The notes: generated by a model from the letters alone, not told the origin. A DNA stretch of 64,000 bases from Patescibacteria group bacterium (GCA_016926555.1 JAFGOI010000013.1:44802-108801); one strand, 5' to 3'. Shown: positions 8,080-29,142, numbered from the stretch's first letter. A program made the numbers and translations.

Positions 8080-8424
8080 ATGCTTGAAAAGAAATATATA
8101 ACAGAAATTCTACAAAGAACATATTGTTATAAATGCGGTGCTAGCATGGAAAATGCAAAAATTATACCAATAACTGAAGCCCCGTTAGCCTTAGTAGCTC
8201 ACACAGTATGCCCTGCATGTCAAGCAGAAGCTATGCTTACTATCACTCCCGTTGGAAGTGGTTTGATGCCCATCAGATCAGATCTAAAGGGGGACGAGAT
8301 TAAAAAGTTTATAGGTGCTAATTCCGTGAGTTTTAAGGAACTGCTAAAACTGCACGCATCATTAAAGAAAGAAAGTATATGGAACTTACTGCAGAAAAAA
8401 GACAGGAATCAGGAAAAAAAGTAA
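8080..8424 (+). CDS. zinc-ribbon protein, hypothetical
   Basis: 114-aa ORF with a CYKCG...CPACQ four-Cys arrangement. Its 3' end overlaps the rplY start by 46 nt, so its status is uncertain. Confidence 0.35.
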   Translation: MLEKKYITEILQRTYCYKCGASMENAKIIPITEAPLALVAHTVCPACQAEAMLTITPVGSGLMPIRSDLKGDEIKKFIGANSVSFKELLKLHASLKKESIWNLLQKKDRNQEKK

Positions 8425-9044
8425 GACACTTACGAAAAGAAAATAAAATACCTGCCGTTATGTTTGGCAAAGGTCTTGAATCAGTGTCTTTGTCCTTGAA
8501 TTATCTTGATTTTGATAGATTATACAAGGAGGCAGGTGAAACTAATCTTATTGACCTAAATTATAACAGTGAATCTCATAAGGTTCTGATCAAAGAAGTC
8601 CAGTATGACCCTATATCAGACAAAATAATCCATGTGGGATTTTATAAACCAGACCTTACCGAAAAAGTAGAAGTAAATGTACCTGTGGAAGTAATCGGTG
8701 AAGAAGAAAACGACCTTATTAAAAGCGGTGAAGCTGTTGTACTGGTACTCCTTCAGGAAATAACAATAAGCGCGCTTCCTACCGAGCTAAAAGATGCTTT
8801 TGTCATTGATGTTTCTAAACTAACTGAAGTCGGCGCTGCTGTTACAGTCGCACAATTAGACTATGACAGGGAAAAAGTTGAAATCGTTGACGTGGAAAAG
8901 GATGAGGCTGTTGTAAGGCTAGATTACGCTCAAATGGCCGAAGAAGAAGAGGAAGTCAGCGAAGAAGAGCTTATAGAGGGTATTGAAGCCACTGAAGAGA
9001 CTGAAAAAGACGAAGAAGAGGCTGAAGATACAGCCGAAAGTTGA
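8379..9044 (+). CDS. rplY: 50S ribosomal protein L25 / general stress protein Ctc form
   Basis: The N-terminus LTAEKRQESGKKVRHLRKENKIPAVMFGKG is the canonical L25 start. The long acidic C-terminal tail is typical of Ctc-type L25. Confidence 0.8.
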   Translation: MELTAEKRQESGKKVRHLRKENKIPAVMFGKGLESVSLSLNYLDFDRLYKEAGETNLIDLNYNSESHKVLIKEVQYDPISDKIIHVGFYKPDLTEKVEVNVPVEVIGEEENDLIKSGEAVVLVLLQEITISALPTELKDAFVIDVSKLTEVGAAVTVAQLDYDREKVEIVDVEKDEAVVRLDYAQMAEEEEEVSEEELIEGIEATEETEKDEEEAEDTAES

Positions 9045-9067
9045 ATTCTATAGATTGACCTATAATA

Positions 9068-9096
9068 TTGCACCCCCTATAATTTTATAGTATACT
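9068..9096 (+). promoter_or_regulatory. candidate sigma70-type promoter (TTGCAC-N17-TATACT) in the AT-rich leader before the GC-rich island
   Basis: Read directly from the sequence. It lies about 200 nt upstream of the first island gene. No transcript data are available. Confidence 0.3.
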
Positions 9097-9303
9097 TCAA
9101 ACAATTTTCCAACTTGTAATCTGCTCTTAGTGCAGGTGAAAACTAATTATTATGGCACCTTGAAAACCCGTATGGGTTGATAGGTCCTACATACACTTAT
9201 ATTTCCCTCTAGTTATCCTGGGATTTGAGTGTATGTTGGGCTTATTAACCCGAATGAACTGGAAAACTGAATAAGAACATAAACTTTTGAAAGGAGGAAG
9301 GCC

Positions 9304-11112
9304 GTGGCGAAAAAGAAGAAAGGCCACGAGAAGAAGAGCGGAATTTCGATCTGGCAATTCCTCGGAAAAGCCCTATCGATTTTTACCGCTTTCTTCCTGT
9401 GGTTCGCCACAGGATTACCCTTCTCGCTGGTGCCCAAGTGGCAGAAGTGGACAGTGGCAACGGTTGCCGTTGCTGAAGGCGCTGATATTGGCAGGACTGC
9501 AATCTCATGGAACGCTGACCTGCTTCCTGATCTTACCCCAGAACTCATAGCCGTTGGCATTGAGAATGGGGTGCATCCGGATGCTTTGAGTGGGATGGTG
9601 AAAGCCTCTGCGCTCGAACGGAGCATTGCGTCCGGACTTCCAGAAGCCGGTACAGGCCTGAGAGTAGATATGTACACGATAGGCGGTATTGGTGATATCG
9701 AGAGTTCTCTCGATGTGGACTCCGTGAACCCGGAGGAAAAGAACGTTACCGGGGGATGCAACGCGGTGTGGGAGCTAATGCACCACCCGTTGCTGGACGG
9801 AGTTAAGGAGGTAAACGCCCTTCGCCAGATAGCTAAGGCACAGGGCTTAAACCTCTGGAAGATCAAGGGAAGCTGCGGAGCCGGCTGCGTGGGGTGGAAT
9901 CAAAGTCTCCCTACTAACTGGATCCGACTAATGGGACCCGAGTTCGACCCATGGAACCGCGAACACGCGCAAGAGTTCACAGCGCGTTACTTGGTCGCGG
10001 ATGGTGATTACTTCACCATGGGTCGTGAGCACGCAATTAGGGCTTACAACCCTAATGCAAGCGACGCGGAATACTTGCAACCAGTACTCGCAAGAGCAGC
10101 TCAGTTGCAGACGGCTTTTGAGGAAGCAGAGCTAGCTGCCCCGGAAGTTGAGCTCAGAACATCAGAGCTTACACTGGCGGGAGATGAAGAAACAGAAGAA
10201 AACATAGTTGAAGTCGAACTTGAGGAACCGACAACAGAGTCGGTTACTGAACTCGACGGATGGCCCGTTCCCCTAGGTACGGGCAGAACTGGCGTACCTT
10301 TTGGAGCACCGTCTAGTTACCAGCCTCAAGGGCATTCAGGGATCGACCTGGGCGTATCTACAGGCACCCCGATCAAGAGTGTCGGGTCCGGAGTCGTCGT
10401 CTACGTTGGTTGGTTCCCGCAGCAGGCGTTGTGGAAACTGAGAAACATCGGTCACGGTAATACTGTGATCGTGTACCACGGGGTAGCATCGGATGGAGAC
10501 CCTGTGTATTCCTACTACGCACACCTTTCTGAATTCGCTGTTGAAACCGGCGAGTACGTTCAGGAAGGCGATATCGTAGGTTTATCAGGAAACACAGGCG
10601 CATCCAGCGGTCCCCATCTCCATTTCGCCATCCGAAAGGGCGGTGGAATCGAGTATGACGGGGCTGATGCAGACGGCCGTGATTGGTCAGACGGCCAGTG
10701 GGTTGATCCAGATCTCTGGGTCAACAACACCCAAGGAGGTGGTGAATTCGAACTTACAGCAGAGGTCCCAATCAGAGGCAGAATCACCGGAGGTACGTCG
10801 AGAGAGGTGACAGTTATACTCTTGAATACTCCCTCCGTAGAATTTGCAGCTTGGTTGGGAAAGGTTTCGCGAGCGGCAGAACAAGGCGTGGCCATCCTTG
10901 AACGTACTCCTATCCCGGAAGTAGTTCGGGAAACGGAGCGTGTTTCTACTCTGACCGAGCTTCTCGAATCAATCAGCTCGGCAGGAAAAAGGTGGTATGT
11001 GCCAGTTTCTACCCTCGCCATAGCGGGTCAACCTAAAGAGCTAGGGCTCAACCCGCTGGTAGACTGGGCTATCATCAGTATCGGTGAAGAAACTGATAGC
11101 CCTTTTAAATGA
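9304..11112 (+). CDS. membrane-anchored M23 (LytM-type) peptidase with large N-terminal domain of unknown function; first gene of GC-rich island
   Basis: 602-aa ORF starting at GTG, preceded by AAAGGAGGAAGG. It has a Lys-rich N-terminus and one TM helix. The C-terminal domain carries M23 signatures GHSGIDLG (HxxxD) and GPHLHFAI (HxH), plus YYAHLSEF. GC content is far above the flanks. Antisense ORFs in this stretch are GC artefacts. Confidence 0.75.
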   Translation: MAKKKKGHEKKSGISIWQFLGKALSIFTAFFLWFATGLPFSLVPKWQKWTVATVAVAEGADIGRTAISWNADLLPDLTPELIAVGIENGVHPDALSGMVKASALERSIASGLPEAGTGLRVDMYTIGGIGDIESSLDVDSVNPEEKNVTGGCNAVWELMHHPLLDGVKEVNALRQIAKAQGLNLWKIKGSCGAGCVGWNQSLPTNWIRLMGPEFDPWNREHAQEFTARYLVADGDYFTMGREHAIRAYNPNASDAEYLQPVLARAAQLQTAFEEAELAAPEVELRTSELTLAGDEETEENIVEVELEEPTTESVTELDGWPVPLGTGRTGVPFGAPSSYQPQGHSGIDLGVSTGTPIKSVGSGVVVYVGWFPQQALWKLRNIGHGNTVIVYHGVASDGDPVYSYYAHLSEFAVETGEYVQEGDIVGLSGNTGASSGPHLHFAIRKGGGIEYDGADADGRDWSDGQWVDPDLWVNNTQGGGEFELTAEVPIRGRITGGTSREVTVILLNTPSVEFAAWLGKVSRAAEQGVAILERTPIPEVVRETERVSTLTELLESISSAGKRWYVPVSTLAIAGQPKELGLNPLVDWAIISIGEETDSPFK

Positions 11113-11150
11113 TCTAACTTCACACACATCAAATAAGAGGAGTTACAACA

Positions 11151-12089
11151 ATGGAAGCCAAGTTTTGGACGTGGATGAAAGCATTCGTGGTTATCATCCT
11201 GGCCGGAGCACTATCCGGGACGGGATGGTGGGTACTAGTCGGTCGCGGTCTCAAAGGAATCACAACCGCGCCGGGACAGGTGGCACAAGGATATACTGGG
11301 GAAGAGAATCCTTCGATTCAGATACCAGGAGGTCCTCACTGCCTGTTCGGAGGCAAACTGTGCGTCAACATGGGGGGTACCACTTTCTACCTCCCGACTG
11401 GCGAAGAAAGCTGGCTCGACGAAGGCGGCAGTGGAGGCAGTGAAAGCCAAATCGTCACGTTCGAAGTTCCGGAAGAGTCTGAGGACACGACTGGAGCTCA
11501 GACAGCACCGGAGACCAATACGGGTGGCGCAGCTGAGTACATTCGTTCAGGCAAGTGCGCCATGTACGTTGGGTTCCTCAAGGGACTTGGCGACGGCGCA
11601 GACTACACACTCGTAGAGGAACAAGCCAACGAAGTTCTGGCTGAGTGCCCCGGAAACGACGTGGAAGCCATGGAAGTGGCAGCCGCAGCAATGGGGGCGG
11701 TGGGCCTGTACAAGGCGCGACTCCAGGCGGAAGCCGATACAAGACAAATGGCGATCGACTCATGGAACACCGTCGCAATGGCAGCCGAAAGCCTCAGTCC
11801 GACGGACACACGAGGCTTTAAAAGCATCGTCACGGAGCTAGGTGGAACGTTTCACCTGGCCGAGATCGAAGGCTTGTTGCCGAAGATCCTACAGAGGATT
11901 GTTGGAGGCGGTGAGCCTTGCCATGTGTACGTCAACCCACCGACTCTTATGGCAGGCGACGTTAAGGCCGTAGAGATGACGGTTCAACTAGCCGTCCTCT
12001 GGGACCTTGGTATAGGCGCGGAAGGACATGGGCTGACCCTGCCGACAGTTCCCGAGTTCCCAGCGGACTATACACTGACGGAGGAGTGA
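11151..12089 (+). CDS. hypothetical signal-anchored or secreted protein (island gene 2)
   Basis: 312-aa ORF preceded by AAGAGGAG. It has an N-terminal hydrophobic helix (FVVIILAGALSGTGWWVLVG), is GC-rich and has no recognisable domain. It starts 38 nt after the M23 gene stop. Confidence 0.55.
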   Translation: MEAKFWTWMKAFVVIILAGALSGTGWWVLVGRGLKGITTAPGQVAQGYTGEENPSIQIPGGPHCLFGGKLCVNMGGTTFYLPTGEESWLDEGGSGGSESQIVTFEVPEESEDTTGAQTAPETNTGGAAEYIRSGKCAMYVGFLKGLGDGADYTLVEEQANEVLAECPGNDVEAMEVAAAAMGAVGLYKARLQAEADTRQMAIDSWNTVAMAAESLSPTDTRGFKSIVTELGGTFHLAEIEGLLPKILQRIVGGGEPCHVYVNPPTLMAGDVKAVEMTVQLAVLWDLGIGAEGHGLTLPTVPEFPADYTLTEE

Positions 12090-12099
12090 GGAGGCTACT

Positions 12100-12990
12100 A
12101 TGTCCAAGAGATCAAGGCTACTCGAGGAAAAGTACGCCAAAGAAAGGGCGAATCAGGACGCAGATGCCGCAAGAGCAGCCGTAGAGGAGCTGGAAAGTAC
12201 CTGGCAGGCTCGTAAGGGGCTTCTACAGCGACTCTATATCCCTCGGCCCAGCAAGCCGTCATTCCTGGGTTGGGGGTGCCTGTTCGAAATCCTCTACTGG
12301 ACGGCTGTGTTCGTGCTGTGGCTCTACACACCGAGCATTTTGGCACCAGCAGCCGGGATCGGATTGCGACTGTATATGTTGCACAGGTCAGGGAAGCTAC
12401 TGGGGACACTGCCGCAAGATGTACGCGACAAGATCGGCGGTGATGAGGATGAGAATGAGGAATCAGCCGGGAAAGGATCCGGTTTCTTCACCTTCGTGGT
12501 TAAGCTAGGGGTATCCCTGGCTGTCATAATAACCACCGTAGCAATCACCATCAGTGCCCCAGGGTTGGCAGCCCTCTTCGGACTGGTGCTGACGGGTATC
12601 AGCTTCATCTGGCTACGTAAACCAAGCCGACCTTGGCAGGACTCAAAAGGCTTGTGGCATATACACCCCGCCTTCCTGTACTCCCTCCTTACGGGACAGA
12701 TCGGGTACATGTTCCAGAGGTTCTCCTATGGACCGAAAGGAACACGAATTAGCCGCTGGCGGATCTTGAGCTTCGGACGAGGTGAAAGCAATGTGGGAGG
12801 ATCCACAACAGACATCGACGTAGATGTGACTATCCTATCGTGGTTGCTTGGCGCAGCCATTGTTACAATAGGAAGTTCCGGGGGAGATCCCGACGAAGCC
12901 TTCATACCAAGGTGGGCAGACATCGACACCATCCTCAACCACATCATGGAGAACATCAAGGACGAGGGCGATGGGGAGGACGATGAATGA
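12100..12990 (+). CDS. hypothetical polytopic membrane protein (island gene 3)
   Basis: 296-aa ORF preceded by GAGGAGG, starting 10 nt after the stop of gene 2. It has about 4 hydrophobic helices, an acidic loop and an acidic C-terminus, and is GC-rich. Confidence 0.55.
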   Translation: MSKRSRLLEEKYAKERANQDADAARAAVEELESTWQARKGLLQRLYIPRPSKPSFLGWGCLFEILYWTAVFVLWLYTPSILAPAAGIGLRLYMLHRSGKLLGTLPQDVRDKIGGDEDENEESAGKGSGFFTFVVKLGVSLAVIITTVAITISAPGLAALFGLVLTGISFIWLRKPSRPWQDSKGLWHIHPAFLYSLLTGQIGYMFQRFSYGPKGTRISRWRILSFGRGESNVGGSTTDIDVDVTILSWLLGAAIVTIGSSGGDPDEAFIPRWADIDTILNHIMENIKDEGDGEDDE

Positions 12991-13261
12991 AAGCCCAATG
13001 GACGGGGGACCGCCCCATGCAGTTTCGCCAGTTCACATGCGGGAGCAGCAAGAAAGGAGACAAGAAAAGCTAACTGCCCGGAGCCCTCCGCTCTACCTAC
13101 TACACACAATATGTCGTGTGCAGCAAGGGGAACGGGGGGCTTCGTCGTTTTATAGACTTTTTTTGAGTTAGAACCACAACACCTTTACTAACACTTTAGA
13201 TCGCAAAAATATTACTTACTTTCAGAAATGAGAAACCATTCAAAATCTAATAAAATAAATG

Positions 13262-15706
13262 CTAAACTTCAGGCCATTTAGAAACTGCAATAGGATTATC
13301 GTATTTTCTCGGAATATTTTCCCACACAGCCTCAGTCACAAACGGCATAAACGGGTGTAACAACTTCAAACTATTTAAAAACACATGTCTTAACACGCTT
13401 AACCCTATCCTTTTACTCTTTATATCTTCTCTATTCTTAACATCTTCAATATATATATCTGCAATTTCATGCCATAAAAAGTGGTACAGTGCGTCCCCTG
13501 CCTCCATAAATCTGTATTTCTCAAGGTTTTCAGTCACATATGTTACTAAATCTGAATACTTATTTAATATCTCCACATCCACCTCAATGAAATCCTCTGG
13601 ATCTAGCCACGGATTGCAGTCACAAGACTCTGTACAGGTACAATGCTTCAAAAACGGTACATCTTCACCAGTTTCTTCCTTGTATGAATCCGCCATCATA
13701 ATCATAAACCTTCCCATATTCCATATTTTGTTTGCAAAATTCCTGTAACCTCTAACTTTATCGGCGCTAAAAGAAGTAGTTCTAGCTGCTGAATTTCCTC
13801 CAACCAGCATACCCATTCTTAACGCGTCTGCTCCATACTTTTCCACAAATTCCAATGGATCTATAACATTTCCCTTGCTTTTACTCATCTTTTGACCTTT
13901 TTCATCGTCTATTCTTCCGTGAATATATACATTTTCATAAGGAACTTTCGGACCATCTTCATCATCCTTTGTTAAATAGAGCGAAAACATAATCATTCTA
14001 GCTATCCAGAAAAACAGAATGTCCCACATAGAGTCCATAAATTGGGTTGGGAAAAACTCCTTGTAATCGTCACCATCAGGATAACGCAAAGTTGCGAAAG
14101 GCCATTGCCCCGATGAAAACCATGTATCAAATGTGTCTGTTTCAGGTATGAATTCTTCGTTTATCTGATCTTGTCCAGCTTTTTTATCAAGACCCGTATT
14201 GATTCTCTTACCCGGATCTTCAGCGCTTATTTCATATCTTGCATCTTTTGGAACGATTACTTTTTGTAAACCTTCCTTAATTTCATCCAAACTAAAACCT
14301 TCTTCCCTAAGATCGTGCAATAATCCCTCATGACTGTTACCATCTTTGTCAATAAAAACAACAAAGATTCCCCCGTTCTCATTAGATTCAGAATCCTTTA
14401 CGTAATACCAAATAGGAATCCTAATACCAAAAACGGTCTGTCTGCTTATCGGCCAATCATGAATATTTTCAAGCCATTTGAGTGACTCTCTCTTCCACAA
14501 ATTTCTATTGTATTTAACTTTTCCCGTTCTTATTGCCTCTATAGCCATACTTGCCAGATTAATTTTCTTGTCAGTCATTTTTACAAACCAATTTGGCAAA
14601 AGCATAGGCTCAATAGGTTTTTTATCTTTATAATCAACAAGAAGGTTGTGTGTGTACTTCTCGTCTATTTTTTCTAAAGCGCCTTTTTCCTCAAGAATCT
14701 CTACAGTTTTCTTACGAGCTGAATGTACTCTCATTCCGGCTACATCAGAAGCCTCTTTTGTCATTTTCCCTTCCAAATCAACCACGGAAATCATGGGCAA
14801 ATTGTGTTTTTTACCTATTTCATAATCATTAAAATCGTGTCCCGGGGTAATTTTTAACGCACCTGTTCCAAAATCTATATCCACGTACTCATCTTCAATA
14901 ATTTTCATTTCTCTGCTATTTAACGGATTTATAGCTACCTTTCCAACATATTTTTTATACTTTTTATCTTTTGGATTTACCGCAATGGCAACATCGGCAT
15001 ATATTGTTTCTGGGCGCCCGGTCGCCACAGTTACAAATTCATCTGAATCCTTGATTTTGTATTTAACATAGTAAAGCGGAGAAACCTCTTCCACATGTTC
15101 AGTCTCTAAATTGCTAAAAGTGGTCCCATGCGTAGGAGAATAATTCACAAGATAGTCATCCCTGTAAACTAAACCATCTTTGTGCATTTTTTGAAAAGTA
15201 TCGTAGACAGTATCAATTACATGTTGGTCCAACATAAAAGTAGACCGATCCCAATCACAGCTCATGCCCATTTTTTTAAGCTGATCTATTGCCATATCAG
15301 AGTTTTCTAATACAAAATTTAAAATATCGTTGTACAAAGTTTCTCTGTCAAAATCAAATCTGGATTTACCTTCTTTTTTTAGTTTTCGTTCGTATACAAC
15401 TTGAGTTTCAAAACCGGCGTGATCTGTTCCCGGAACATACAAAGTTTTGTATCCTTGCATTCTTTTAAACCTTGTCATTAAATCCTGAATCGCATATGTC
15501 GCGTGCCCACAGTGCAGGGGAGCGTTAGCGTTTGGAGGAGGTATTAAAACAGTGTAAGTTTCATAAGTGCCATCAGCATTTTTCTTTACTTCCAAACCAG
15601 CGTCTTCTCTCATTTTTATACTTTTTTCAGGTGAAAAGACACCAAGTTCTTCCCACTTTTTATATATTTTTTCTTCCCACTCTTTGTGGTCGTATTTTTT
15701 GTCCAT
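13262..15706 (-). CDS. valS: valine--tRNA ligase (ATG at 15706 preferred over the track's GTG start at 15736)
   Basis: HIGH-type motif PLHCGHA and KMSKS are present. The N-terminus MDKKYDHKEWEEKIYKKWEELGVF aligns to the ValRS start. The upstream GTG extension would read through a hairpin and U-tract. Confidence 0.9.
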   Translation of the reverse strand: MDKKYDHKEWEEKIYKKWEELGVFSPEKSIKMREDAGLEVKKNADGTYETYTVLIPPPNANAPLHCGHATYAIQDLMTRFKRMQGYKTLYVPGTDHAGFETQVVYERKLKKEGKSRFDFDRETLYNDILNFVLENSDMAIDQLKKMGMSCDWDRSTFMLDQHVIDTVYDTFQKMHKDGLVYRDDYLVNYSPTHGTTFSNLETEHVEEVSPLYYVKYKIKDSDEFVTVATGRPETIYADVAIAVNPKDKKYKKYVGKVAINPLNSREMKIIEDEYVDIDFGTGALKITPGHDFNDYEIGKKHNLPMISVVDLEGKMTKEASDVAGMRVHSARKKTVEILEEKGALEKIDEKYTHNLLVDYKDKKPIEPMLLPNWFVKMTDKKINLASMAIEAIRTGKVKYNRNLWKRESLKWLENIHDWPISRQTVFGIRIPIWYYVKDSESNENGGIFVVFIDKDGNSHEGLLHDLREEGFSLDEIKEGLQKVIVPKDARYEISAEDPGKRINTGLDKKAGQDQINEEFIPETDTFDTWFSSGQWPFATLRYPDGDDYKEFFPTQFMDSMWDILFFWIARMIMFSLYLTKDDEDGPKVPYENVYIHGRIDDEKGQKMSKSKGNVIDPLEFVEKYGADALRMGMLVGGNSAARTTSFSADKVRGYRNFANKIWNMGRFMIMMADSYKEETGEDVPFLKHCTCTESCDCNPWLDPEDFIEVDVEILNKYSDLVTYVTENLEKYRFMEAGDALYHFLWHEIADIYIEDVKNREDIKSKRIGLSVLRHVFLNSLKLLHPFMPFVTEAVWENIPRKYDNPIAVSKWPEV

Positions 15707-15912
15707 AAAAAACCTCTCATTACTGAGAGGCTCCACAAACTAATTTTAGTGGAAGGTACCAACCTTCTCTATACTTTATTTACAGCTATAACGGGCATTC
15801 CCGTCGGGTTCTAGTTTCCTGCGGAGCGCGTCAAAACAGCGCTACTAGACGCAAAATTTCTTCCCGAAGCATCACCTGGTGACATGATCCAAGCTCAGAC
15901 GCTTTTAGTTTA
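15707..15912 (-). promoter_or_regulatory. candidate T-box-like leader of valS: terminator/SD-sequestrator hairpin plus alternative antiterminator with UGGUACC bulge
   Basis: On the minus strand, CCUCUCA-GUAA-UGAGAGG followed by U6 abuts the ATG, and GAGAGG also serves as the SD. Upstream, GAGAAGG-UUGGUACC-UUCCAC...GUGGAG-CCUCUC can fold as helix A1, a 7-8-nt bulge and helix A2, mimicking the T-box motif AGGGUGGNACCGCG. CCGUUA (F-box-like) lies about 25 nt further 5'. The segment is locally GC-rich (visibly above the surrounding AT-rich DNA). Confidence 0.4.
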
Positions 15913-20087: not shown

Positions 20088-21399
20088 AAAAAGGATTGTG
20101 TATCAAGGACAAGCCAAGTGTAATCCAGAACAATAAATGGGTTTGATGCATCGTAATTAAGTAGTGATCAAAACACCCTATAAACACCAACGTAAAAAGT
20201 GGGACTAAAAATAAGGTGTTATTACGTAGACACGCTTTTAATGTTAGATAAATTAGACATAAAAACAGCCCTGCTGAAAACACACCCGCTTCCGAAAGAA
20301 TGAGAACAAATATATTATGCACCGGTTGAATAAACCTCACAGATGTATATATCACCTTGTTATCTTCAATAACCGACGTAGATGTTCCATAACCCAGCCC
20401 AAAAAGAGCATTATCCTTAATTATTCTGTAGTTAGAAACAAGCAAATCAGCCCTTCTATAAAAAGAGGAATATTTTGATAAAAGCGCACTTTTTCGAAAA
20501 ACAGGAAGGCTTAATGAAAATATCAGTGTAACAACAATCAGCAAATAAACAAGGCCAACAAACTTTTTGCCTTTTGACATAAACAACAAAAATAAACTCA
20601 AAATAAAACAGACATAAGACACAATGCTGAGGGTTATTAGTAGATTAACCAGAGCCAACAATAGAACCAGGTAATATAGGCCGGTATATTTGTTTTTATA
20701 CAAAGATAGCTTAAATATTAATTTGCTCTTCTTATTTGAAAACTCCACCTCCAAAACAAGAAACATTAAGAACCATACGATAAAAATAGTTAAATATCCC
20801 GAAAATGTATTCGGATGTCTAAACAGCCCATATGGCGGAATAAATTCACTGCCGAAAAAATACTCACTCGTGATTCCTCTAGTCTGTTTGTTGTAAGGTT
20901 GCTCGCCAAAATATAAATAATTGTTAAACACTGATCCCTGTTTAATTAACTGCATAACCCCTAAAACACTTAGCAAAAAAATCGAAACAAAAGATACACA
21001 CACTATATTTTTTATGAACTTTTTTGTACTGACTTCATATCTCACATAAAAAGTAATCAAGCTATATAAAAAGGTCCTCAAAAAAAATGTGACGGAGGCC
21101 ATTTTCCTTTCGGAATTTATAATTGAAAAGATCAACGAAAACAGAAACAAAAAAAGTACCTGACCATACTTATCAAAAAATATACTTCGAAAAGAATCTT
21201 TATCTTTCACAAGTTCCAAAAACCAGAAAAACAGGAGTAATACAACAAGTAAGTCCTGCACGTATATAACAGGGATTAAATAATCAACAGTTAACCCATA
21301 TACATAAGAATCCTTGACAACATAATGCTTACCTATATTAAGAGGCAAAAAAAACACGAGTACTAAAAAGATGTATTGAGATATTTTCTTGTGACTCAT
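20062..21399 (-). CDS. polytopic membrane protein, O-antigen ligase/polymerase (Wzy_C)-like
   Basis: 445-aa ORF with 10 or more TM helices and a large loop near the C-terminal third. It overlaps gatD upstream by 4 nt. Confidence 0.45.
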   Translation of the reverse strand: MSHKKISQYIFLVLVFFLPLNIGKHYVVKDSYVYGLTVDYLIPVIYVQDLLVVLLLFFWFLELVKDKDSFRSIFFDKYGQVLFLFLFSLIFSIINSERKMASVTFFLRTFLYSLITFYVRYEVSTKKFIKNIVCVSFVSIFLLSVLGVMQLIKQGSVFNNYLYFGEQPYNKQTRGITSEYFFGSEFIPPYGLFRHPNTFSGYLTIFIVWFLMFLVLEVEFSNKKSKLIFKLSLYKNKYTGLYYLVLLLALVNLLITLSIVSYVCFILSLFLLFMSKGKKFVGLVYLLIVVTLIFSLSLPVFRKSALLSKYSSFYRRADLLVSNYRIIKDNALFGLGYGTSTSVIEDNKVIYTSVRFIQPVHNIFVLILSEAGVFSAGLFLCLIYLTLKACLRNNTLFLVPLFTLVFIGCFDHYLITMHQTHLLFWITLGLSLIHNPFYAYNTRDA

Positions 21400-22166
21400 T
21401 TATACTTAAATGAGGCAGTGTAAGCAGGAATCACTAACGAATTATCTATAGAAGGCAGACTGTCCATTCCTAAACTTTTAGATATTAAGTAATCAGCTAT
21501 ATGCGCATTCCTTGATAAAAGGGGACCGTGGAAATACGTTCCCAATGTATTCTTAAATAAGATTCCCTCAGTATCATCTTCCCCATTATTACCATAACCT
21601 CTTTCAACATACGCAAGAGGGGCCATGTCATCAGCTAAATAGCTTCTCCCTCCGTGATTACAAAAACCTACAATTTTACCGCCTAGAAAATTAACCTCAG
21701 AAAAGACAGGATCACTAAGAAAATCGCTATTCAAGCGAGCTACAACATTACCAACACACCTTGCTTTTCTACCCCCAAAGTGTTGCGTGTACATATCATA
21801 AATACCCAGTCCTTCTATAAATGTACCGTCATCCGCTTTATAATAGTGCCCTAATAATTGATAAGCTCCACAAATAAACAAACCAACACCTCCCTTTTGA
21901 ATATACTCATTAAGATAATCTCCTTTATTTTTTAACAAATCCTTATATACCTCTTTCTGGCCTGAATCAGGGCCGCCCCCCATGAAAACAATGTCCAGAG
22001 CAGACATAGCTTTCGAATTTATTTTCAAATCAGTATCAATATGTACAATGTCAACATATATATTTCTTCTCAGGGCGCGCATTGTTAATATTTCAACATT
22101 TCCGTTATCTCCATATAAATTGAGCTGATCCTTATAAAAATAGCCAATAGTTAATTTTGTGGTCAT
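21396..22166 (-). CDS. gatD: lipid II isoglutaminyl synthase, glutamine amidotransferase subunit GatD
   Basis: LNLYGDNGN, ICGAYQLLG (catalytic Cys), NHGGRSY and GYGNNGEDDTEGILFKNTLGTYFHGPLL match Staphylococcus GatD segments almost residue for residue. It overlaps murT by 4 nt. Confidence 0.85.
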   Translation of the reverse strand: MTTKLTIGYFYKDQLNLYGDNGNVEILTMRALRRNIYVDIVHIDTDLKINSKAMSALDIVFMGGGPDSGQKEVYKDLLKNKGDYLNEYIQKGGVGLFICGAYQLLGHYYKADDGTFIEGLGIYDMYTQHFGGRKARCVGNVVARLNSDFLSDPVFSEVNFLGGKIVGFCNHGGRSYLADDMAPLAYVERGYGNNGEDDTEGILFKNTLGTYFHGPLLSRNAHIADYLISKSLGMDSLPSIDNSLVIPAYTASFKYK

Positions 22167-23332
22167 AATATAGACCTCCCAACTAACAACTTACGCAGCT
22201 CAAGCATAGATGAATAATTGGGATAACACACAATTGTTTTATCTTTCATACACTTATTTATCTTTTTCAAGCTCTCTTTTATACTCCTGTTTATATTATC
22301 TTTACCAAGAGTTACACCTGCATAATCCAACCTTAGCGCCATTTCAAGATAACGCGTACCACTTACATAAATATCTTTAGAATGACAAACTTTTTTTAGC
22401 AAAACAGGGTCAATATCATATATCCAAGAAACATCTTTTCCGTCAGGGATATTATCGTTTAGTATAAACAATAGAGAGTCTATATGGATTTTTTGAGACA
22501 TAAACATTTTTAAGTTATTGTTGAAACTAGCGGGATTTTTAGCCAGATATATTTTATATATATTCTGAGCATAATTTATTTCCTCCCCTCGACCATAGGC
22601 TAATTTAAAATCGGAAAGTGCAGAGATACTCACTTCTTCCGAAATACCCATTAATTCAACTGCAATTAAAGCCGCATTTAAATTTTTCGCATTAAACTCA
22701 CCTGATAAAGAAGTCTTATCTAGAGCAGTGTAAGAAGAGTCAAAACCATAAGTATCCAGCGTATCATCCACAAAAAAAGGCTTAAAATATTCCTGGGATT
22801 TATCCAACACTATTTTGGTAGGGAAACTAAACTTTTTTAATCCAGCCTTCCATTTATTTAAAACTATATCTGGTTCAAAATATCTATCTAATTGATCTCG
22901 GGACACATTCATTAACAAAGCAGTAACATCAAGTGAAGAAGTTCTATGTTTGCCAAGTAAATCCAGAAAATAGGGAAAAAACAACTCGTCCACTTCCAAT
23001 ACAGCAACATCTCTGTTTAACCTACCAAGTATATTTGTACCTAAAAGTAAAGATGATATGATGCCATTAAGAAGATTCGCACCGCTTTTATTGCTAATTA
23101 CTCTGTAATTATTATTCTGTAAGATATGACTGATTATTTTTGTAGTTGTAGTTTTACCATTAGTACCAGTAACAAGTATGAGTTTACTCGGTAACATGCA
23201 GCAAATTTTTTTAACTATTTTGGGATATATTTTTAGTGCAATATATCCTGGATATGTGTACCCCGCACCTTTGTTTATGATTTTGGAGATTCTGCTGATC
23301 AATTTTGAAATGTAAGTTGTTATAAGATACAT
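22163..23332 (-). CDS. murT: lipid II isoglutaminyl synthase, Mur-ligase-like subunit MurT
   Basis: P-loop LVTGTNGKTTTTKIISHIL of the Mur ligase central domain, a DUF1727-like C-terminus, and the conserved murT-gatD order. Confidence 0.8.
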   Translation of the reverse strand: MYLITTYISKLISRISKIINKGAGYTYPGYIALKIYPKIVKKICCMLPSKLILVTGTNGKTTTTKIISHILQNNNYRVISNKSGANLLNGIISSLLLGTNILGRLNRDVAVLEVDELFFPYFLDLLGKHRTSSLDVTALLMNVSRDQLDRYFEPDIVLNKWKAGLKKFSFPTKIVLDKSQEYFKPFFVDDTLDTYGFDSSYTALDKTSLSGEFNAKNLNAALIAVELMGISEEVSISALSDFKLAYGRGEEINYAQNIYKIYLAKNPASFNNNLKMFMSQKIHIDSLLFILNDNIPDGKDVSWIYDIDPVLLKKVCHSKDIYVSGTRYLEMALRLDYAGVTLGKDNINRSIKESLKKINKCMKDKTIVCYPNYSSMLELRKLLVGRSIL

Positions 23333-23649: not shown

Positions 23650-25050
23650 TTATTCCTCGAATATCATTTGCTTTATGTTAACTATATCTTGCCTTAGTTT
23701 CCCCATTTTTGTAAGTTCTTCCCCTATTTTATCCACACCGTGCATAATTGTTGTGTGATCCCTACCTCCTAAAAATTCTCCGATGGTCATAAACGGTGTG
23801 TCTGTAATATCTTTAATAAGATACATGGCTACTTGTCTGGGGATAACTATTTCTTTTGTTCGTCTTTTCCCTTTTAAATCGGTTGATTTAACAGAGTAAT
23901 AAGTACACACATATTTTAATATTTGGTTCATATTTACAGGTATTGAAGATCTTTCTTTAATCGTGTGCCCGAGTATGTTTGCAGCGTTATCAACAGTGAA
24001 ATCCAACCCGGATGATCGAATGCTTGTTAATACCTGCATGTAAGCTCCTTCTAACTCTCTAATGTTTGTAACCACTTTTTCTGCAATAAAATCAATGACA
24101 TCATTTGGGATAGTGTCTTGGTTTTTGTCTCTTAAATTCCTTAAAATAGCTATTCTCATCTCTAAGTCAGGAGGTTGTATGTCTGCAATTATTCCTGAAG
24201 CAAAGCGTGAAGTAATTCTATCTTCAAGTTTAGTAAATTCTTTAGGTGGTCTATCTGAAGTTATTACTATCTGTTTTTGAGCCATGTAGAGTGTGTTAAA
24301 TGTGTGGAAGAATTCCTCTTGAGTAGTCTCCCTACCTATTACAAATTGGATGTCGTCAATTAGTAGGACATCCGCCTTGCGAAACTTATTTCTAAATTCG
24401 TTAGAAGCGTATTTTCCTCTTCTTCCACTTTGAATTGATTCAATTAACTCATTTGTGAATTGTTCCCCTGTTGTATAAATAACTTTCATGCCAGGTTTAG
24501 ATTGAATAATTCTGTTTCCAATTGCTTGCAGTAGATGTGTTTTTCCTAGTCCCACGCCGGAGTACATAAATACAGGATTGTATTGTTCCCCCGGTCTTTC
24601 TGCTACAGCTATGGCTATTGCATAAGCAAGGTTGTTGTTTCTTCCTGTAACGAAAGTTTCGAACGTAAATTTTGGTGTTAAATTTGATCTTTGCTGTTTT
24701 TCCCTAAAAAGATTTTCCTGGTCCTGCTTTTGTGTAAATAAGGGACCTAGTACAGTATCTTCTTCCATGCCTTCTTCTTCGTATTGTTGCGTTGTTTTGA
24801 ATACTTTGGATGTTAGCTTGCTTTTAGTGTCTGTAGTTTTGTCTATTACCATTTTTATGTTGTCTATGTATTTTGAGTCTATATTCCTTTTAGTAAATGT
24901 GTCTTCACAAATGATCTCATATTTATTGTCAGATATTTTATTAAGAGTTGCCTTGTTGCTTAAAGATCTAAATATAGGTGATTTTATTTCTATTTCACCT
25001 ATAATTGCTTTCCACAATGTAGTTGTATCTACTTGAGTTTTCTTAGACAT
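23650..25050 (-). CDS. dnaA: chromosomal replication initiator DnaA
   Basis: AAA+ Walker A GVGLGKTHLLQAIGN, a C-terminal DNA-binding domain, and a probable start at MSKKTQVDTTTLWKAI. A perfect DnaA box TTATCCACA lies upstream at 25119-25127. Confidence 0.9.
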   Translation of the reverse strand: MSKKTQVDTTTLWKAIIGEIEIKSPIFRSLSNKATLNKISDNKYEIICEDTFTKRNIDSKYIDNIKMVIDKTTDTKSKLTSKVFKTTQQYEEEGMEEDTVLGPLFTQKQDQENLFREKQQRSNLTPKFTFETFVTGRNNNLAYAIAIAVAERPGEQYNPVFMYSGVGLGKTHLLQAIGNRIIQSKPGMKVIYTTGEQFTNELIESIQSGRRGKYASNEFRNKFRKADVLLIDDIQFVIGRETTQEEFFHTFNTLYMAQKQIVITSDRPPKEFTKLEDRITSRFASGIIADIQPPDLEMRIAILRNLRDKNQDTIPNDVIDFIAEKVVTNIRELEGAYMQVLTSIRSSGLDFTVDNAANILGHTIKERSSIPVNMNQILKYVCTYYSVKSTDLKGKRRTKEIVIPRQVAMYLIKDITDTPFMTIGEFLGGRDHTTIMHGVDKIGEELTKMGKLRQDIVNIKQMIFEE

Positions 25051-25154
25051 ACTTATTTGTTGGTATAATAACATTTCGTGGACAGATTACGGGGCAGTAG
25101 ATATAAATTTAGCATGAGTTATCCACAATGATAAAGCAACGTGTGTTGGTTTAA

Positions 25155-25902: not shown

Positions 25903-26331
25903 TTATTTTTCTAAACTTTTAAAGTATCTCCTTAATATTATACCAGCAGCTAGATGGTCTTTGTGTTGCCCTCTTTTTTGGGATATTTCCAGCTCAATAG
26001 AGGCTTCAAGTGCCTCTCTTGAGGAGTCTAGTTCTTCCTGGAATTCCACTGGTTTTTTTGATATCGCTTTTAACAAATTGGCGAACTTTCTAACTTTCTT
26101 GGCCTGATTGGTATCTTTTCCGTCATGTGTTACAGGGAGTCCCAGTACATATAGATCTACCTTATTCTGCATACCGATTCTTGTTATTTCTTGTGCGGCA
26201 AATATGGAATTTTTTCCCGGGATAATATTTAGAGGTTGAACTAACTCGTTTCTTCCGAGTGCAATACCTATATTAGTTTCTCCGTAGTCTATTCCTATAT
26301 AAGTTTTTGCTGATGTGTTTCTTTTATTCAT
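25903..26331 (-). CDS. ruvX: YqgF/RuvX-like RNase H-fold nuclease
   Basis: 142-aa ORF with YIGIDYGETNIGIALG at the N-terminus (RuvX LGxDxGxKxIGVAxS pattern). Confidence 0.55.
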   Translation of the reverse strand: MNKRNTSAKTYIGIDYGETNIGIALGRNELVQPLNIIPGKNSIFAAQEITRIGMQNKVDLYVLGLPVTHDGKDTNQAKKVRKFANLLKAISKKPVEFQEELDSSREALEASIELEISQKRGQHKDHLAAGIILRRYFKSLEK

Positions 26332-27845
26332 TCTCGCACTATTTCTAGGTGAATTTTATCTGTTTCATGTGGGACATATCCGAAAAACGGAATACTGGGT
26401 CTTATTTCTAATTCATATGTTTGAATATTATTTATACCGCCAAGTGTTTTTTGGGCTTCCTCGGGAGTTTTACCCTTAAGACTTTCTATTATATCTTCTT
26501 TGTTTAACTTGGGTACAATATAGGTTTTAAGAGTGACTTGCACATCGGCTTCGGTTGGGGATAATATGCTGTTGGTTGAATTCCCCAGAATATCCACTTT
26601 AGTATCCCTATCACCTTCGTATAGCTCAAATCCTTCGGGTACAATATCCGCTACTATTTTATCCAAAAAACTGTCCAAGTCTTTTTTTGAGTATGATAGT
26701 CCTGTTGCTGTTATTTCTTGTGTAAGTGTGAGTTCTTTTGTTTCTTCACCCAGTTCGTGGCTGTACTTCTCGTTGGTTATGGTGGTCGAATATGAGCCCT
26801 CAATATATTGAAATCCGGTATTTACAGTGTTTTTCAAGGATTTGGCAGCTTTTTCCTCGGCTTCTTCTAAAAGTTCTAATGACAATTTTTCTATATCGTC
26901 CTTGCCCACAGTTTTAATTGTTGTACTTTTCCCACCCTTGAAATCAGAGTTTGCCTCCGCGGCGGCTTTGCTTTTCTTATAGTCGTCCAGTTCTAATGCG
27001 GAGCCTTTTTCTATGTTGTAGGCATCCCCTATGTGTTTTGCTTCAACATCAACCTCTTTCTGCCCGGGGATAAGAGGACTTCCCGGATCTGTAATATCTT
27101 GGGGAGCAAGTGGAGGGATTTTAATATCGTCTAAAGTGACAAATACTAAATCTTCATCGTCTTCTTTATAAGCTAGTTCGGCTCCTTTGTCTAACTCAAT
27201 TTCATCTGTTGTTTTGTTATAAATCAGTACAGTTCCCCTGGCTTTTTCTCCTTCGATTTTTTCTCCTGTTGTTTCAATTGATTTTTCATTTTTTATTTTG
27301 GTTTCAACAGATATACCCTTGAGTATTTTGTTTTCTATATTTGTGTCTGAAGTTGATGAAACTTTTACTGTGATGCTGCGTGTAAGTGGCTGTGCGTTAA
27401 CGAAAATTTTTGCATAGGCCTCGGGTTTTTTCGAGAGCATCTTTAGTCCGAAATATCCTATTATCGCGATAACTAAGGGAATCACCAAAAATAGAAGATT
27501 GAATTTCAATTTCGGAAATTTACGTTTTTTTCTGGGCTTAGTTTCTGCAGCGGACCCTTCAAATGTGGCTACTTCGTCTATACTGTCTGAATCCTCTAGT
27601 ACGCTTGTGCCTACTTTTTCCTCCATCATCTCAATTAATGTGTTTCCCTGCTCATCTGTTGTCGTGAAATGTACGCTTACGTCGTTTTTGTCGCAGAAGG
27701 AATTTATTAGCTTAAGATTAATGATGTTGTCGAAAAGAACGGAGCCATCTGGAACTATAAGTTCTATGCCGGAGTCATTGATATTTCTGATTTTATTTAT
27801 GGTGGATATTGTATCGTCGTAAAGTTCAAGTTCTATTTTAGTCAT
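26328..27845 (-). CDS. bitopic membrane protein, hypothetical (part of VirB4-like operon)
   Basis: 505-aa ORF with a basic stretch plus a TM helix around residues 105-135 and a large charged extracellular region. Its ends overlap both neighbouring genes. Confidence 0.5.
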   Translation of the reverse strand: MTKIELELYDDTISTINKIRNINDSGIELIVPDGSVLFDNIINLKLINSFCDKNDVSVHFTTTDEQGNTLIEMMEEKVGTSVLEDSDSIDEVATFEGSAAETKPRKKRKFPKLKFNLLFLVIPLVIAIIGYFGLKMLSKKPEAYAKIFVNAQPLTRSITVKVSSTSDTNIENKILKGISVETKIKNEKSIETTGEKIEGEKARGTVLIYNKTTDEIELDKGAELAYKEDDEDLVFVTLDDIKIPPLAPQDITDPGSPLIPGQKEVDVEAKHIGDAYNIEKGSALELDDYKKSKAAAEANSDFKGGKSTTIKTVGKDDIEKLSLELLEEAEEKAAKSLKNTVNTGFQYIEGSYSTTITNEKYSHELGEETKELTLTQEITATGLSYSKKDLDSFLDKIVADIVPEGFELYEGDRDTKVDILGNSTNSILSPTEADVQVTLKTYIVPKLNKEDIIESLKGKTPEEAQKTLGGINNIQTYELEIRPSIPFFGYVPHETDKIHLEIVRE

Positions 27846-29142
27846 ATTTTACTCCTGTTATTTCACTATATATTATTGAAAGGCAGGCTAGAGGCAGCCA
27901 TTCAGAATTGTTTGTTCTTCCTGTAGCGTCATTTATTTTACTTAGATCCATAAAATCAAGTTTTTTAAAATCCGGAGGCTGTTTGAAAGGAACAGATCTC
28001 ATCCAAGGCTCCTCAGATACAGTTTCTACAAGGTTTGGAATATGTGTCGCGGCTCCGGTTAGATATACTTTGGGAGAGAAGGTTTTGACGCCGCTAAATT
28101 CACCAAATAGAAGTTCAAGACCTTGCAGCCATACGTCTAGAGTTTCAAGCAAACACGAATGGACAATGGCGCTTTCTCCGGGAGTTAATTTCTCAGATAT
28201 AAATGCCTCCAACACTTTTTCTGCTTCCATGGGAGTTAAACCCATTTTTTCACCTAGATCCTCAATAAAATGATTGTATCCTATATTTAAACTTCTGGTT
28301 GCAGCGATTCCCTTTCCGAATACGACGGCTACATTAGTCGAATCATTGCTAGTATCGATGATAACGTAGTCGGTGTTTTCAAGGGAGGCAAAGTTTAACT
28401 GTTGCGCGATTGAGTATGTTTCCGATCCTACTGCAAATAAGTTAAGACCGCTAGCGTCGATGACTTTCTCAAGTGTTCTTAAGTGAAACTTTGGGCAGAA
28501 AGAGTTAAATACGGCAGTTTCAATGACCTTTCCTTCCTTCCCTTCCAGTTCGTCAATAAATTTTCCGTCCAGTTTTGTATATACGTTTGATGTGGTTATT
28601 ACTTCTAAGTCTGCGTCGGGATTACCCGTTTTATTTAAATAGTCATTTTGGACCTGCATATAGGCTGCTTCTAGAAGCTGTTTATATATCTTGTCTATAT
28701 CTTTTTTCGAAATTGGGGATTTAGTTCCTCGATTTACTCTTACAGTTGTCATTAATCCCATACACATGTCTCCTGTTACGCCAACGATAACTTGTTTGAT
28801 ATTTTCTTCCAGATCTTTGGTAGCGTTTACTACAGCAATTTTTATTGCTTCTTCTACATCGGATTGGTCTATAATTGTCCCAGAGAGTACACTTCCCAGT
28901 TCCAGCTTCTGCTTGTCATGACCTATAATTTTACAGGAAGATTCTTCCTGGTACATAACTAAACACCTCACATAAGAAGAACTTATCTCCAGAGTAAAAA
29001 ATTTATTAGAATCTCTTTGGGACTTTTTCAGGAAGGGTAGCATAACCATTGGCTTTATTTTAGAATATTTTGCTTTAAAAGGGAATTTTACCAGGAGGTA
29101 TTTTGGGAGGAGGCGGTTTTTCTGTTTCGTTAAATCCGGCAC
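27838..29142 (-). CDS. actin-fold ATPase of FtsA/PilM family
   Basis: 434-aa ORF. Alternating beta/alpha segments with Gly-rich phosphate-loop-like regions (VIVGVTGD, YVIIDTSNDSTNVAV) are typical of the ASKHA FtsA/PilM fold. No ftsZ is adjacent. Confidence 0.45.
   Translation of the reverse strand: MPDLTKQKNRLLPKYLLVKFPFKAKYSKIKPMVMLPFLKKSQRDSNKFFTLEISSSYVRCLVMYQEESSCKIIGHDKQKLELGSVLSGTIIDQSDVEEAIKIAVVNATKDLEENIKQVIVGVTGDMCMGLMTTVRVNRGTKSPISKKDIDKIYKQLLEAAYMQVQNDYLNKTGNPDADLEVITTSNVYTKLDGKFIDELEGKEGKVIETAVFNSFCPKFHLRTLEKVIDASGLNLFAVGSETYSIAQQLNFASLENTDYVIIDTSNDSTNVAVVFGKGIAATRSLNIGYNHFIEDLGEKMGLTPMEAEKVLEAFISEKLTPGESAIVHSCLLETLDVWLQGLELLFGEFSGVKTFSPKVYLTGAATHIPNLVETVSEEPWMRSVPFKQPPDFKKLDFMDLSKINDATGRTNNSEWLPLACLSIIYSEITGVKYD

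Follow-up and report, generated by a model that had tools for sequence, protein, structure and literature searches.

A compositionally foreign, GC-rich islet in a Patescibacteria chromosome carries a predicted murein hydrolase operon

We analysed a stretch of 64,000 nucleotides (nt) from a Patescibacteria group bacterium (GCA_016926555.1, JAFGOI010000013.1:44802-108801), hereafter the window, in which a short block rich in guanine and cytosine (GC) lies between the genes rplY and valS. The block (~9298-13140, plus strand, ~3.85 kb) was delimited by its GC profile, and its three open reading frames (ORFs) are here called g1, g2 and g3. It is a known kind of feature, a compositionally foreign genomic islet. 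Our preferred interpretation, to which we assign a probability of about 0.7, is that the islet is a real part of the chromosome, that it evolved in a genome richer in GC, and that it was laterally inserted into a Patescibacteria chromosome of 37.6% GC. The three ORFs correspond to g1-g3 of a conserved cassette of four genes, g1-g4, and the window copy is 3'-truncated, having lost g4. The g1 product is a putative membrane-anchored bifunctional murein hydrolase. Neither the cargo family nor its systematic GC excess over its hosts was described in the literature searched.

Composition and boundaries of the islet

An abrupt high-GC block in a low-GC background had been proposed in the initial annotation, and a 300-nt GC profile confirmed it, running at 0.33-0.43 up to 9.3 kb, at 0.53-0.59 over 9300-13050 and at 0.33-0.39 beyond. 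The block 9304-13140 has 54.8% GC compared to 37.6% for the remainder of the window, where the highest 1-kb bin reached 0.426. At 50-nt resolution, the rise on the left was sharp and fell at ~9290-9300, which is the position of the AAGGAGG Shine-Dalgarno sequence and GTG start of g1. The drop at the right edge, at ~13140, was also sharp. The gene content described at the outset was borne out by the coordinates: three co-oriented ORFs of 602, 312 and 296 amino acids (aa) are separated by 38 and 10 nt, each is preceded by a strong Shine-Dalgarno sequence (AAGGAGG, AGAGGAG and GGAGG, respectively), and the minus strand carries spurious antisense ORFs of 103-217 aa.

The codon-usage and tetranucleotide profiles, like the windowed GC, placed the islet outside the host range. 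The tetranucleotide L1 distance between the islet and the rest of the window was 0.61, versus a median of 0.15 and a non-islet maximum of 0.22 for 3.8-kb windows, making the islet the sole tetranucleotide outlier of the 64 kb. Relative synonymous codon usage in the islet correlated with that of the host at r = -0.16, compared to 0.58-0.86 for single host genes. GC at the first, second and third codon positions (GC1, GC2 and GC3) was 0.61, 0.47 and 0.57 in the islet versus 0.46, 0.33 and 0.34 in the host (18,055 host codons), and the islet GC3 lay 0.213 over the value expected from host codon choice when amino-acid content was controlled. The islet proteins are enriched relative to those of the host in Gly (11.7% versus 5.7%), Ala (9.2% versus 5.5%) and Trp (3.0% versus 0.9%) and depleted in Lys (3.7% versus 8.1%). 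The 150-nt non-coding tail that occupies the position of g4 (12991-13140, plus strand) has 58.7% GC compared to 36% for host non-coding DNA. The foreign composition of the islet DNA extends to every codon position and to the non-coding tail, and in base composition and codon usage the islet has the atypical character relative to the host that marks genomic islands. High expression as the source of the GC excess was rejected because the maximum GC3 of any host gene in the window was only 0.41.

Contiguity of the assembly

The initial annotation had offered a chimeric join as the alternative to horizontal acquisition. A fragment from a high-GC organism, joined into a low-GC contig during assembly or binning, would produce the GC shift that is seen to be abrupt at both ends. 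However, the Logan assembly of SRR13394437 contains a 26.7-kb contig that is identical to the window over 13.9 kb and runs through both junctions with 0 mismatches, extending >9 kb past the left junction and ~730 nt past the right. This contig was probably built from the same reads by a different assembler. The insert is also exactly intergenic, with both flanking genes intact, and nine further independent low-GC assemblies contain the cassette with the same step in GC; in one of them the carrier contig is 865 kb long. Because the Logan match spans both junctions and the gene set recurs in these nine contigs, we consider an assembly chimera very unlikely.

The islet occupies the spacer between two convergent genes. 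Upstream lies rplY (L25/TL5; 8379-9044, plus strand), and downstream lies valS (13262-15736, minus strand), whose 3' end faces the islet. The description of the flanks as housekeeping genes was correct, but the right-hand side adjoins the 3' end of valS and not its leader, as had been supposed. The motif TTTTATAGW, earlier pointed out at both edges, is indeed present at 9083 and 13148, but it lacks significance: the window holds 9 copies versus 3.7 expected, and 4 of 100 shuffled sequences reach 9. Since this frequency is near chance, the motif gives no evidence of an attachment site.

The cassette family and its GC excess

Ten loci make up the family: the window and nine others, namely L002, L003, L004, L005 (= L006 = L007), L008 (= L009), L011, L012, L013 (= L014) and L015. 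The gene order g1-g2-g3 is the same in all family contigs, and g4 comes next where the contig extends. The family is rare. Word-based searches returned only three full-length g1 relatives, and HMMER searches over 1.84 billion representative proteins returned ~8 full-length g1 clusters. The hosts that can be named are Candidatus Pacebacteria and, through an identical flanking RNase HII, Candidatus Gottesmanbacteria. The flanking genes differ in every lineage: the cassette sits between rplY and valS in the window, between rplA and HD-thrS in the Pacebacteria genome, beside rplJ in L015, between Radical-SAM and AI-2E transporter genes in L012, and by AbiEii and DUF4143 genes in L013. The family has the patchy distribution and variable insertion site that are characteristic of genomic islands.

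In all ten loci the cassette is richer in GC than its flanks, by +0.06 to +0.20. The combined rise in GC1 and GC2 is 0.05-0.14 in all loci measured, and the Gly/Ala/Trp/Pro-rich make-up of the family proteins itself accounts for about +0.06 to +0.09 of the GC excess. The silent-site excess, which is the cassette GC3 minus the value predicted for its amino acids if codons were chosen as in the host, was obtained for seven loci and was -0.04 in L011, +0.04 in L012, +0.11 in L013, +0.15 in L009, +0.18 in L006, +0.21 in the window and +0.22 in L015. This continuum looks like amelioration after transfers of different ages. The excess is gone in L011 and L012, and therefore no universal force holds the silent sites GC-rich. 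If the islet was acquired laterally, the window value of 0.21 is likely to be a donor signature that has not yet decayed, and its GC1 and GC3 suggest, with good though not firm confidence, that the donor genome had a GC content in the low-to-mid 50s %.

Weighing the origin of the islet

The horizontal acquisition put forward in the initial annotation is supported by the foreign GC, codon and tetranucleotide usage, which includes the non-coding tail. The qualification that it was recent finds no support, as the transfer is not datable and the nearest g1 homologue is 47-49% identical. Both genomic islands and gene transfer (by competence, conjugation or transduction) have been documented in Patescibacteria, a group in which competence and pili are regarded as prevalent (PMC12455944). 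The insertion has no site-specific scar; the islet probably entered by DNA uptake and was then integrated by illegitimate or homology-facilitated recombination.

Several observations weigh against a lateral origin, beginning with the level of identity just given. The window copy stands alone on a deep branch, its N-terminal domain is at most 47% identical to that of any relative, and no donor or near-identical copy was present in the databases searched. A sampled GC-rich reservoir should have given GC-rich carriers, and there are none among the ten loci: all full-length relatives lie in low-GC contigs, and the context is GC-rich in 0 of 10. Compared between two hosts, g1 (35%) and g2 (32%) have diverged as deeply as core proteins (RplJ 26%, RplL 53%), and given this divergence the cassette may be an ancient resident. 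The usual marks of mobility are also missing. ARAGORN found no transfer RNA (tRNA) or transfer-messenger RNA in the 64-kb window, the three islet proteins gave no significant match to integrase families (DUF3701 stayed sub-threshold at 14.5 bits versus a cut-off of 26.9), and no flanking direct repeats exceeded chance. In this respect the profile, repeat and ARAGORN searches agree with the first reading of the sequence, which had seen no integrase, tRNA or convincing flanking repeat; mobility genes, a tRNA target and direct repeats, which often accompany genomic islands, are all lacking here. No close relatives of the host were found, ValS and DnaK being singletons at 90% identity, and no sister genome with an empty rplY-valS site came to light; an exact-protein look-up of RplY for a strain with an empty site likewise recorded nothing. 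The 5' leader of the operon (9045-9290) is AT-rich, at 34% GC, and thus resembles the host. AlphaFold2 models of g1 (four-sequence alignment, predicted local distance difference test score 38.6) and g2 (single sequence, score 49.0) were unusable.

Some of these observations would be accommodated if the cassette were a long-resident and essentially vertical Patescibacteria feature, its GC held high by selection on codons or messenger RNA, or by GC-biased gene conversion at a frequently recombining locus. The higher GC in 10 of 10 loci, the correlation between cassette and host GC (r = 0.74) and the amino-acid-controlled GC3 excess of +0.11 to +0.22 in five of the seven loci are consistent with such maintenance, although the silent-site excess has been lost in L011 (-0.04) and L012 (+0.04), and the high GC extends in the window to the non-coding 3' tail. 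The divergence of the family matches the depth of host core genes, and the lack of any GC-rich carrier among 1.84 billion representatives fits vertical descent, as does the lack of mobility genes (none in the window islet and none conspicuous among the genes tabulated for the other loci). The distribution is nevertheless very patchy, with a different genomic place in each lineage. The host-like leader, with the GC step falling at the start codon, agrees with maintained GC at the coding sequence. Reported recombination-associated shifts of GC3 in bacteria amount to a few points, not 20, which counts against this explanation. We regard it as unlikely, and retain it because there is no donor, no GC-rich carrier and no mobility mark, the divergence is core-like and the leader is host-like.

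It is also conceivable, if rather doubtful, that the cassette is an envelope module without integrase, confined to Patescibacteria, whose GC content is kept well above that of every host genome, owing either to a non-neutral process at the locus, such as selection on codons or messenger RNA or GC-biased conversion driven by recombination, or to a hidden GC-rich reservoir. In the second case, low-GC genomes of the Candidate Phyla Radiation (CPR) would repeatedly have been seeded by a lineage or an extrachromosomal element that is missing from the 15 billion proteins sampled. Lateral insertion from a GC-richer genome remains the interpretation that we prefer.

g1 is a putative membrane-anchored murein hydrolase

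The first gene of the islet, g1 (MBN1162814.1; 9304-11112, plus strand), lies on a 170.8-kb contig, encodes 602 aa and starts at a GTG codon preceded by the Shine-Dalgarno sequence at 9291-9297. Hydropathy analysis predicts an N-terminal transmembrane segment at aa 14-43. This is followed by a helical, SLT_2-like lytic transglycosylase module of ~250 aa (aa ~60-275), an M23 endopeptidase domain (aa 343-447; Pfam PF01551) and a conserved C-terminal tail with the pattern IAGQP.EL.L.P. The M23 assignment was strong (89.9 bits compared to a cut-off of 28.7), and M23 was the only match in an NCBIfam scan of the islet proteins. The M23 motifs are all present, namely H344xxxD348 (H344-SGI-D348), H407 (YAH407L) and H438xH440 (H438-L-H440), and by analogy to LytM and lysostaphin we take these residues to be zinc ligands or catalytic residues. 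The closest solved structures in PDB were zoocin A and lysostaphin, with expectation values (E) of 3e-13 to 1e-11.

The N-terminal module is very divergent. Three of six family N-domains weakly matched SLT_2 (PF13406; best E = 3.5e-4), the window g1 itself was not matched, and sequence comparison of its N-module to solved structures gave no match. E133 (IESS), Q200 (GW(T/N)Q) and Y248-N249-P250 (AYNP) are invariant in all six sequences, and presumably correspond to the SLT catalytic motifs. P0171, a distant relative, has both SLT_2 and M23 in precomputed Pfam annotation. Together, these features suggest that g1 is a membrane-anchored bifunctional murein hydrolase.

Two relatives show other arrangements. 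P0004 (L004, 2612-5155) retains the SLT_2-like module at its N-terminus and the tail at its C-terminus, and M23 is replaced by a polysaccharide deacetylase domain (PF01522) and ~300 unassigned aa; by sequence, this is a swap of catalytic modules in the same scaffold. In the distant relative P0158 (L017, 8001-11428) an SLT-like module is located at the C-terminus, and this gene and the next two, one of which encodes an SH3_3 domain, have a GC content of 0.50-0.59 compared to ~0.44 for the flanks.

The domain content of g1 also raises the possibility that the islet derives from the lysis module of a prophage, or from a wall-breaching conjugative module of the VirB1 type, and was left when the rest of the element decayed. 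The g1 M23 domain matches endolysin, tape-measure and peptidase families of phages in PHROG, but these matches are confined to aa ~330-470 and so cover the M23 domain only. The combination of transmembrane segment, lytic transglycosylase and peptidase resembles the two-domain VirB1-like hydrolases of monoderm type IV secretion, and a type IV secretion ATPase is encoded in the window (29075-31525), although at a distance of 16 kb. The g4 proteins of other loci are small with two transmembrane segments, and are holin-like or VirB3-like in size, yet none of g2, g3 and g4 matched the VirB8, VirB6, VirB3 or holin families. No match was obtained to the g1 family profile in IMG/VR contigs, to the g1 N-domain or g2 in GenBank phages, or to the g1 N-domain or g3 in PLSDB plasmids, and the precomputed-Pfam gene tables, for those cassette loci that had one, contained no recognisable phage, integrase, relaxase or VirB4 gene. 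These searches showed neither a phage context nor phage homologues beyond M23, such as a phage lysis cassette should have, and we consider a phage or conjugative remnant quite improbable. Phages, conjugative elements and a high-GC host bacterium had also been named as possible donors; the searches of IMG/VR, GenBank phages and PLSDB returned no homologue, and the relatives are all in low-GC contigs, so that none of these proposals gained support.

g2, g3 and the missing g4

The second gene, g2 (11151-12089, plus strand; 312 aa), follows g1 after a 38-nt spacer and has the Shine-Dalgarno sequence AGAGGAG. Its product has a single predicted transmembrane segment (aa 5-30, by hydropathy) and a conserved C-terminal module of the pattern GGTF.L..IEGL.P......GGGE.C. 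It had no match in Pfam, NCBIfam, PHROG, PADLOC or PDB. The third gene, g3 (12100-12990, plus strand; 296 aa), follows after 10 nt with the Shine-Dalgarno sequence GGAGG. The protein contains two hydrophobic hairpins (aa ~55-87 and ~130-170), with ~4 predicted membrane spans, and had no family, defence-system, phage or solved-structure match; PADLOC gave no defence-system match. The g3 orthologue of L005 alone matched bPH_2 (PF03703), at 20.7 bits versus a cut-off of 22 (E = 5e-4), and the window g3 did not. The C-terminal domain of g3 may be bPH-like.

Word-based homology searches with g2 and g3 returned only the queries themselves, and their relatives were recognised by synteny alone. Syntenic g2 homologues with 25-34% identity are found in L002-L005 and L009, and a gene of g2 size is located at the matching place in L012, L013 and L015; the g2 proteins of L005 and L015 are 32% identical. 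Syntenic homologues of g3 have 20-25% identity. The fourth gene, g4, is present in L003, L005, L009, L012, L013 and L015 and encodes a small membrane protein with two transmembrane segments and a GG.(T/S)GEEI motif. In the window g4 is missing, and tblastn detected no remnant of it in the tail. An assignment of g2, g3 and g4 as VirB8, VirB6 and VirB3 was considered and rejected, as profile searches gave it no support.

Expression signals

A sigma-70-like promoter, TTGACC-17-TATAAT, is predicted at 9055-9083 (plus strand), ~220 nt upstream of g1, and agrees with the consensus at 11 of 12 positions. Between it and g1 the leader contains an imperfect hairpin of 78 nt (inverted repeat I1, 9174-9251, plus strand) with 29-nt arms that are 79% complementary, and the leader as a whole gave a fold z of -3.06. 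At the other end, a long, GC-rich, terminator-like hairpin (~13080-13143; fold z = -2.0) is followed by a U-rich run (13147-13166). An Rfam search of 8900-13400 returned only a chance microRNA match (E = 0.33), with no known RNA in the leader or the tail. When the leaders of six loci were aligned, only the Shine-Dalgarno sequence was common to them, and no conserved leader RNA or attachment site was seen. The co-orientation of g1-g2-g3, the 10-38-nt spacers and the strong Shine-Dalgarno sites form an operon layout. Transcription would start from the host-type promoter or by read-through from rplY, and would end at the GC-rich hairpin and U-tract.

Proposed function

If this assignment of g1 is correct, the protein would be tethered to the membrane and expose its catalytic domains on the outer side, where the SLT_2-like domain would cut glycan strands and the M23 domain would cut peptide cross-links. 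The presumably co-transcribed g2 and g3, and g4 in other loci, probably position or restrain the activity of g1. The purpose may be a local breach of the wall, either of the bacterium's own wall for a trans-envelope structure or of the wall of an attached host cell. The window also encodes MurT/GatD (21396-23332) and MurJ (37748-39388), which shows that the organism makes its own, probably amidated, peptidoglycan.

Genes around the cassette loci

A protein of 816 aa encoded at 29075-31525 on the minus strand of the window has HerA/DUF87, TraG-D_C and TrwB domains, and is the ATPase of the VirB4 or coupling-protein type of type IV secretion mentioned above. Two large ORFs beside it (505 and 434 aa) had no Pfam match. 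The region 26328-31525 (minus strand) lies 16 kb from the islet and may hold the Patescibacteria locus for type IV secretion. Also on the minus strand, dnaA (23650-25074) lies ~10.5 kb from the islet, which places the islet near the probable replication origin. At the left flank, an ORF of 114 aa with a zinc ribbon (8080-8424) overlaps the start of rplY by 46 nt, and RplY itself has a long acidic C-terminal tail that derives from an imperfect GAA-rich repeat.

The cassette adjoins a ribosomal-protein gene in three of the ten loci: rplY in the window (8379-9304), rplA in L006 (7662-8884) and a divergent rplJ in L015 (4119-5464). By a rough post-hoc estimate, this is above the rate for random insertion. 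In Pacebacteria (L006, 6466-8408; L005, 631-10703), ~9 kb interrupts the usually contiguous nusG-rplK-rplA / rplJ-rplL cluster; besides the cassette, this DNA comprises thrS, a gene with an HD domain and two small ORFs (127 and 154 aa). Upstream of the cassette in L013 (449-8859), three AbiEii toxin genes and two AAA_14/DUF4143 ATPase genes mark the region as variable and of the defence type. Elsewhere, an AbiEii-like gene lies downstream of the cassette in L009, and a DUF4143 ATPase gene lies upstream of it in L011. The RNase HII of L013 (3137-3790) is identical to that of the NCBI metagenome-assembled genome Candidatus Gottesmanbacteria RIFCSPLOWO2_02_FULL_38_8, and the L013 g1 protein (P0125) is recorded from ENA assemblies only.

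Significance and comparison with known systems

On the lateral interpretation, the islet is a contig-verified gene gain in a streamlined Patescibacteria genome, without the usual marks of mobility, and bears on how episymbionts equipped with competence and pili acquire genes. Its cargo is an undescribed operon, in which a predicted double-headed, membrane-anchored murein hydrolase is encoded with three membrane proteins that matched no known family. A plausible role for the cassette is that of an accessory tool with which a cell wall, either the bacterium's own or that of its host, is breached. That its GC lies above that of all ten hosts while no GC-rich carrier has been sampled is a small unexplained regularity.

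The g1 protein resembles PrgK (pCF10), TraG (pIP501) and CwlT (ICEBs1), which are two-domain VirB1-like peptidoglycan hydrolases from conjugation systems of monoderms, in having a predicted N-terminal anchor, then a putative domain of the lytic-transglycosylase type and then a peptidase domain for the peptide stem or cross-link. It differs from them in that the second domain is M23 and not CHAP or NlpC-P60, the putative SLT module is SLT_2-like (MltB-like) and very divergent, and there is a conserved C-terminal tail. VirB1 homologues with extra M23 domains, usually unlinked to virB4, have been reported in Patescibacteria (PMC12102498). Unlike VirB1-like hydrolases, the cassette is not beside virB4 or other type IV secretion genes in any locus for which a gene table was inspected: the nearest ATPase gene is 16 kb off in the window, and there is none within +/-10 kb in L012, L013 and L015. 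With lysostaphin, zoocin A and M23 enzymes of the LytM type, g1 shares the metal-binding and catalytic motifs, and these proteins gave its best structure matches. In contrast to those enzymes, which are secreted and have a single catalytic domain and cell-wall-targeting domains, g1 is predicted to be membrane-anchored, is fused to a putative transglycosylase module and is encoded with three membrane proteins.

P0171 (L016) and P0211 (L018) have the same order of transmembrane segment, SLT_2 and M23 as g1, with 25% identity over 330 aa. Their neighbours differ from those in the cassette, with a protein of 780-944 aa encoded upstream and an unrelated protein of 245 aa downstream, and in L018 the P0211 gene adjoins mreB and PBP2. 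L018 is at compositional equilibrium, with 60% GC throughout, and L016 is near it, with 42% GC and gene bins of <=0.49.

Like the genomic islands described in Patescibacteria (PMC12455944), the islet is a sharp block of atypical GC, tetranucleotide and codon usage that carries accessory genes in a streamlined, low-GC CPR genome. Unlike them, it is only 3.85 kb long and has no integrase, tRNA target or direct repeats, and its cargo is a single conserved operon that recurs at unrelated CPR sites and is always GC-richer than its host.

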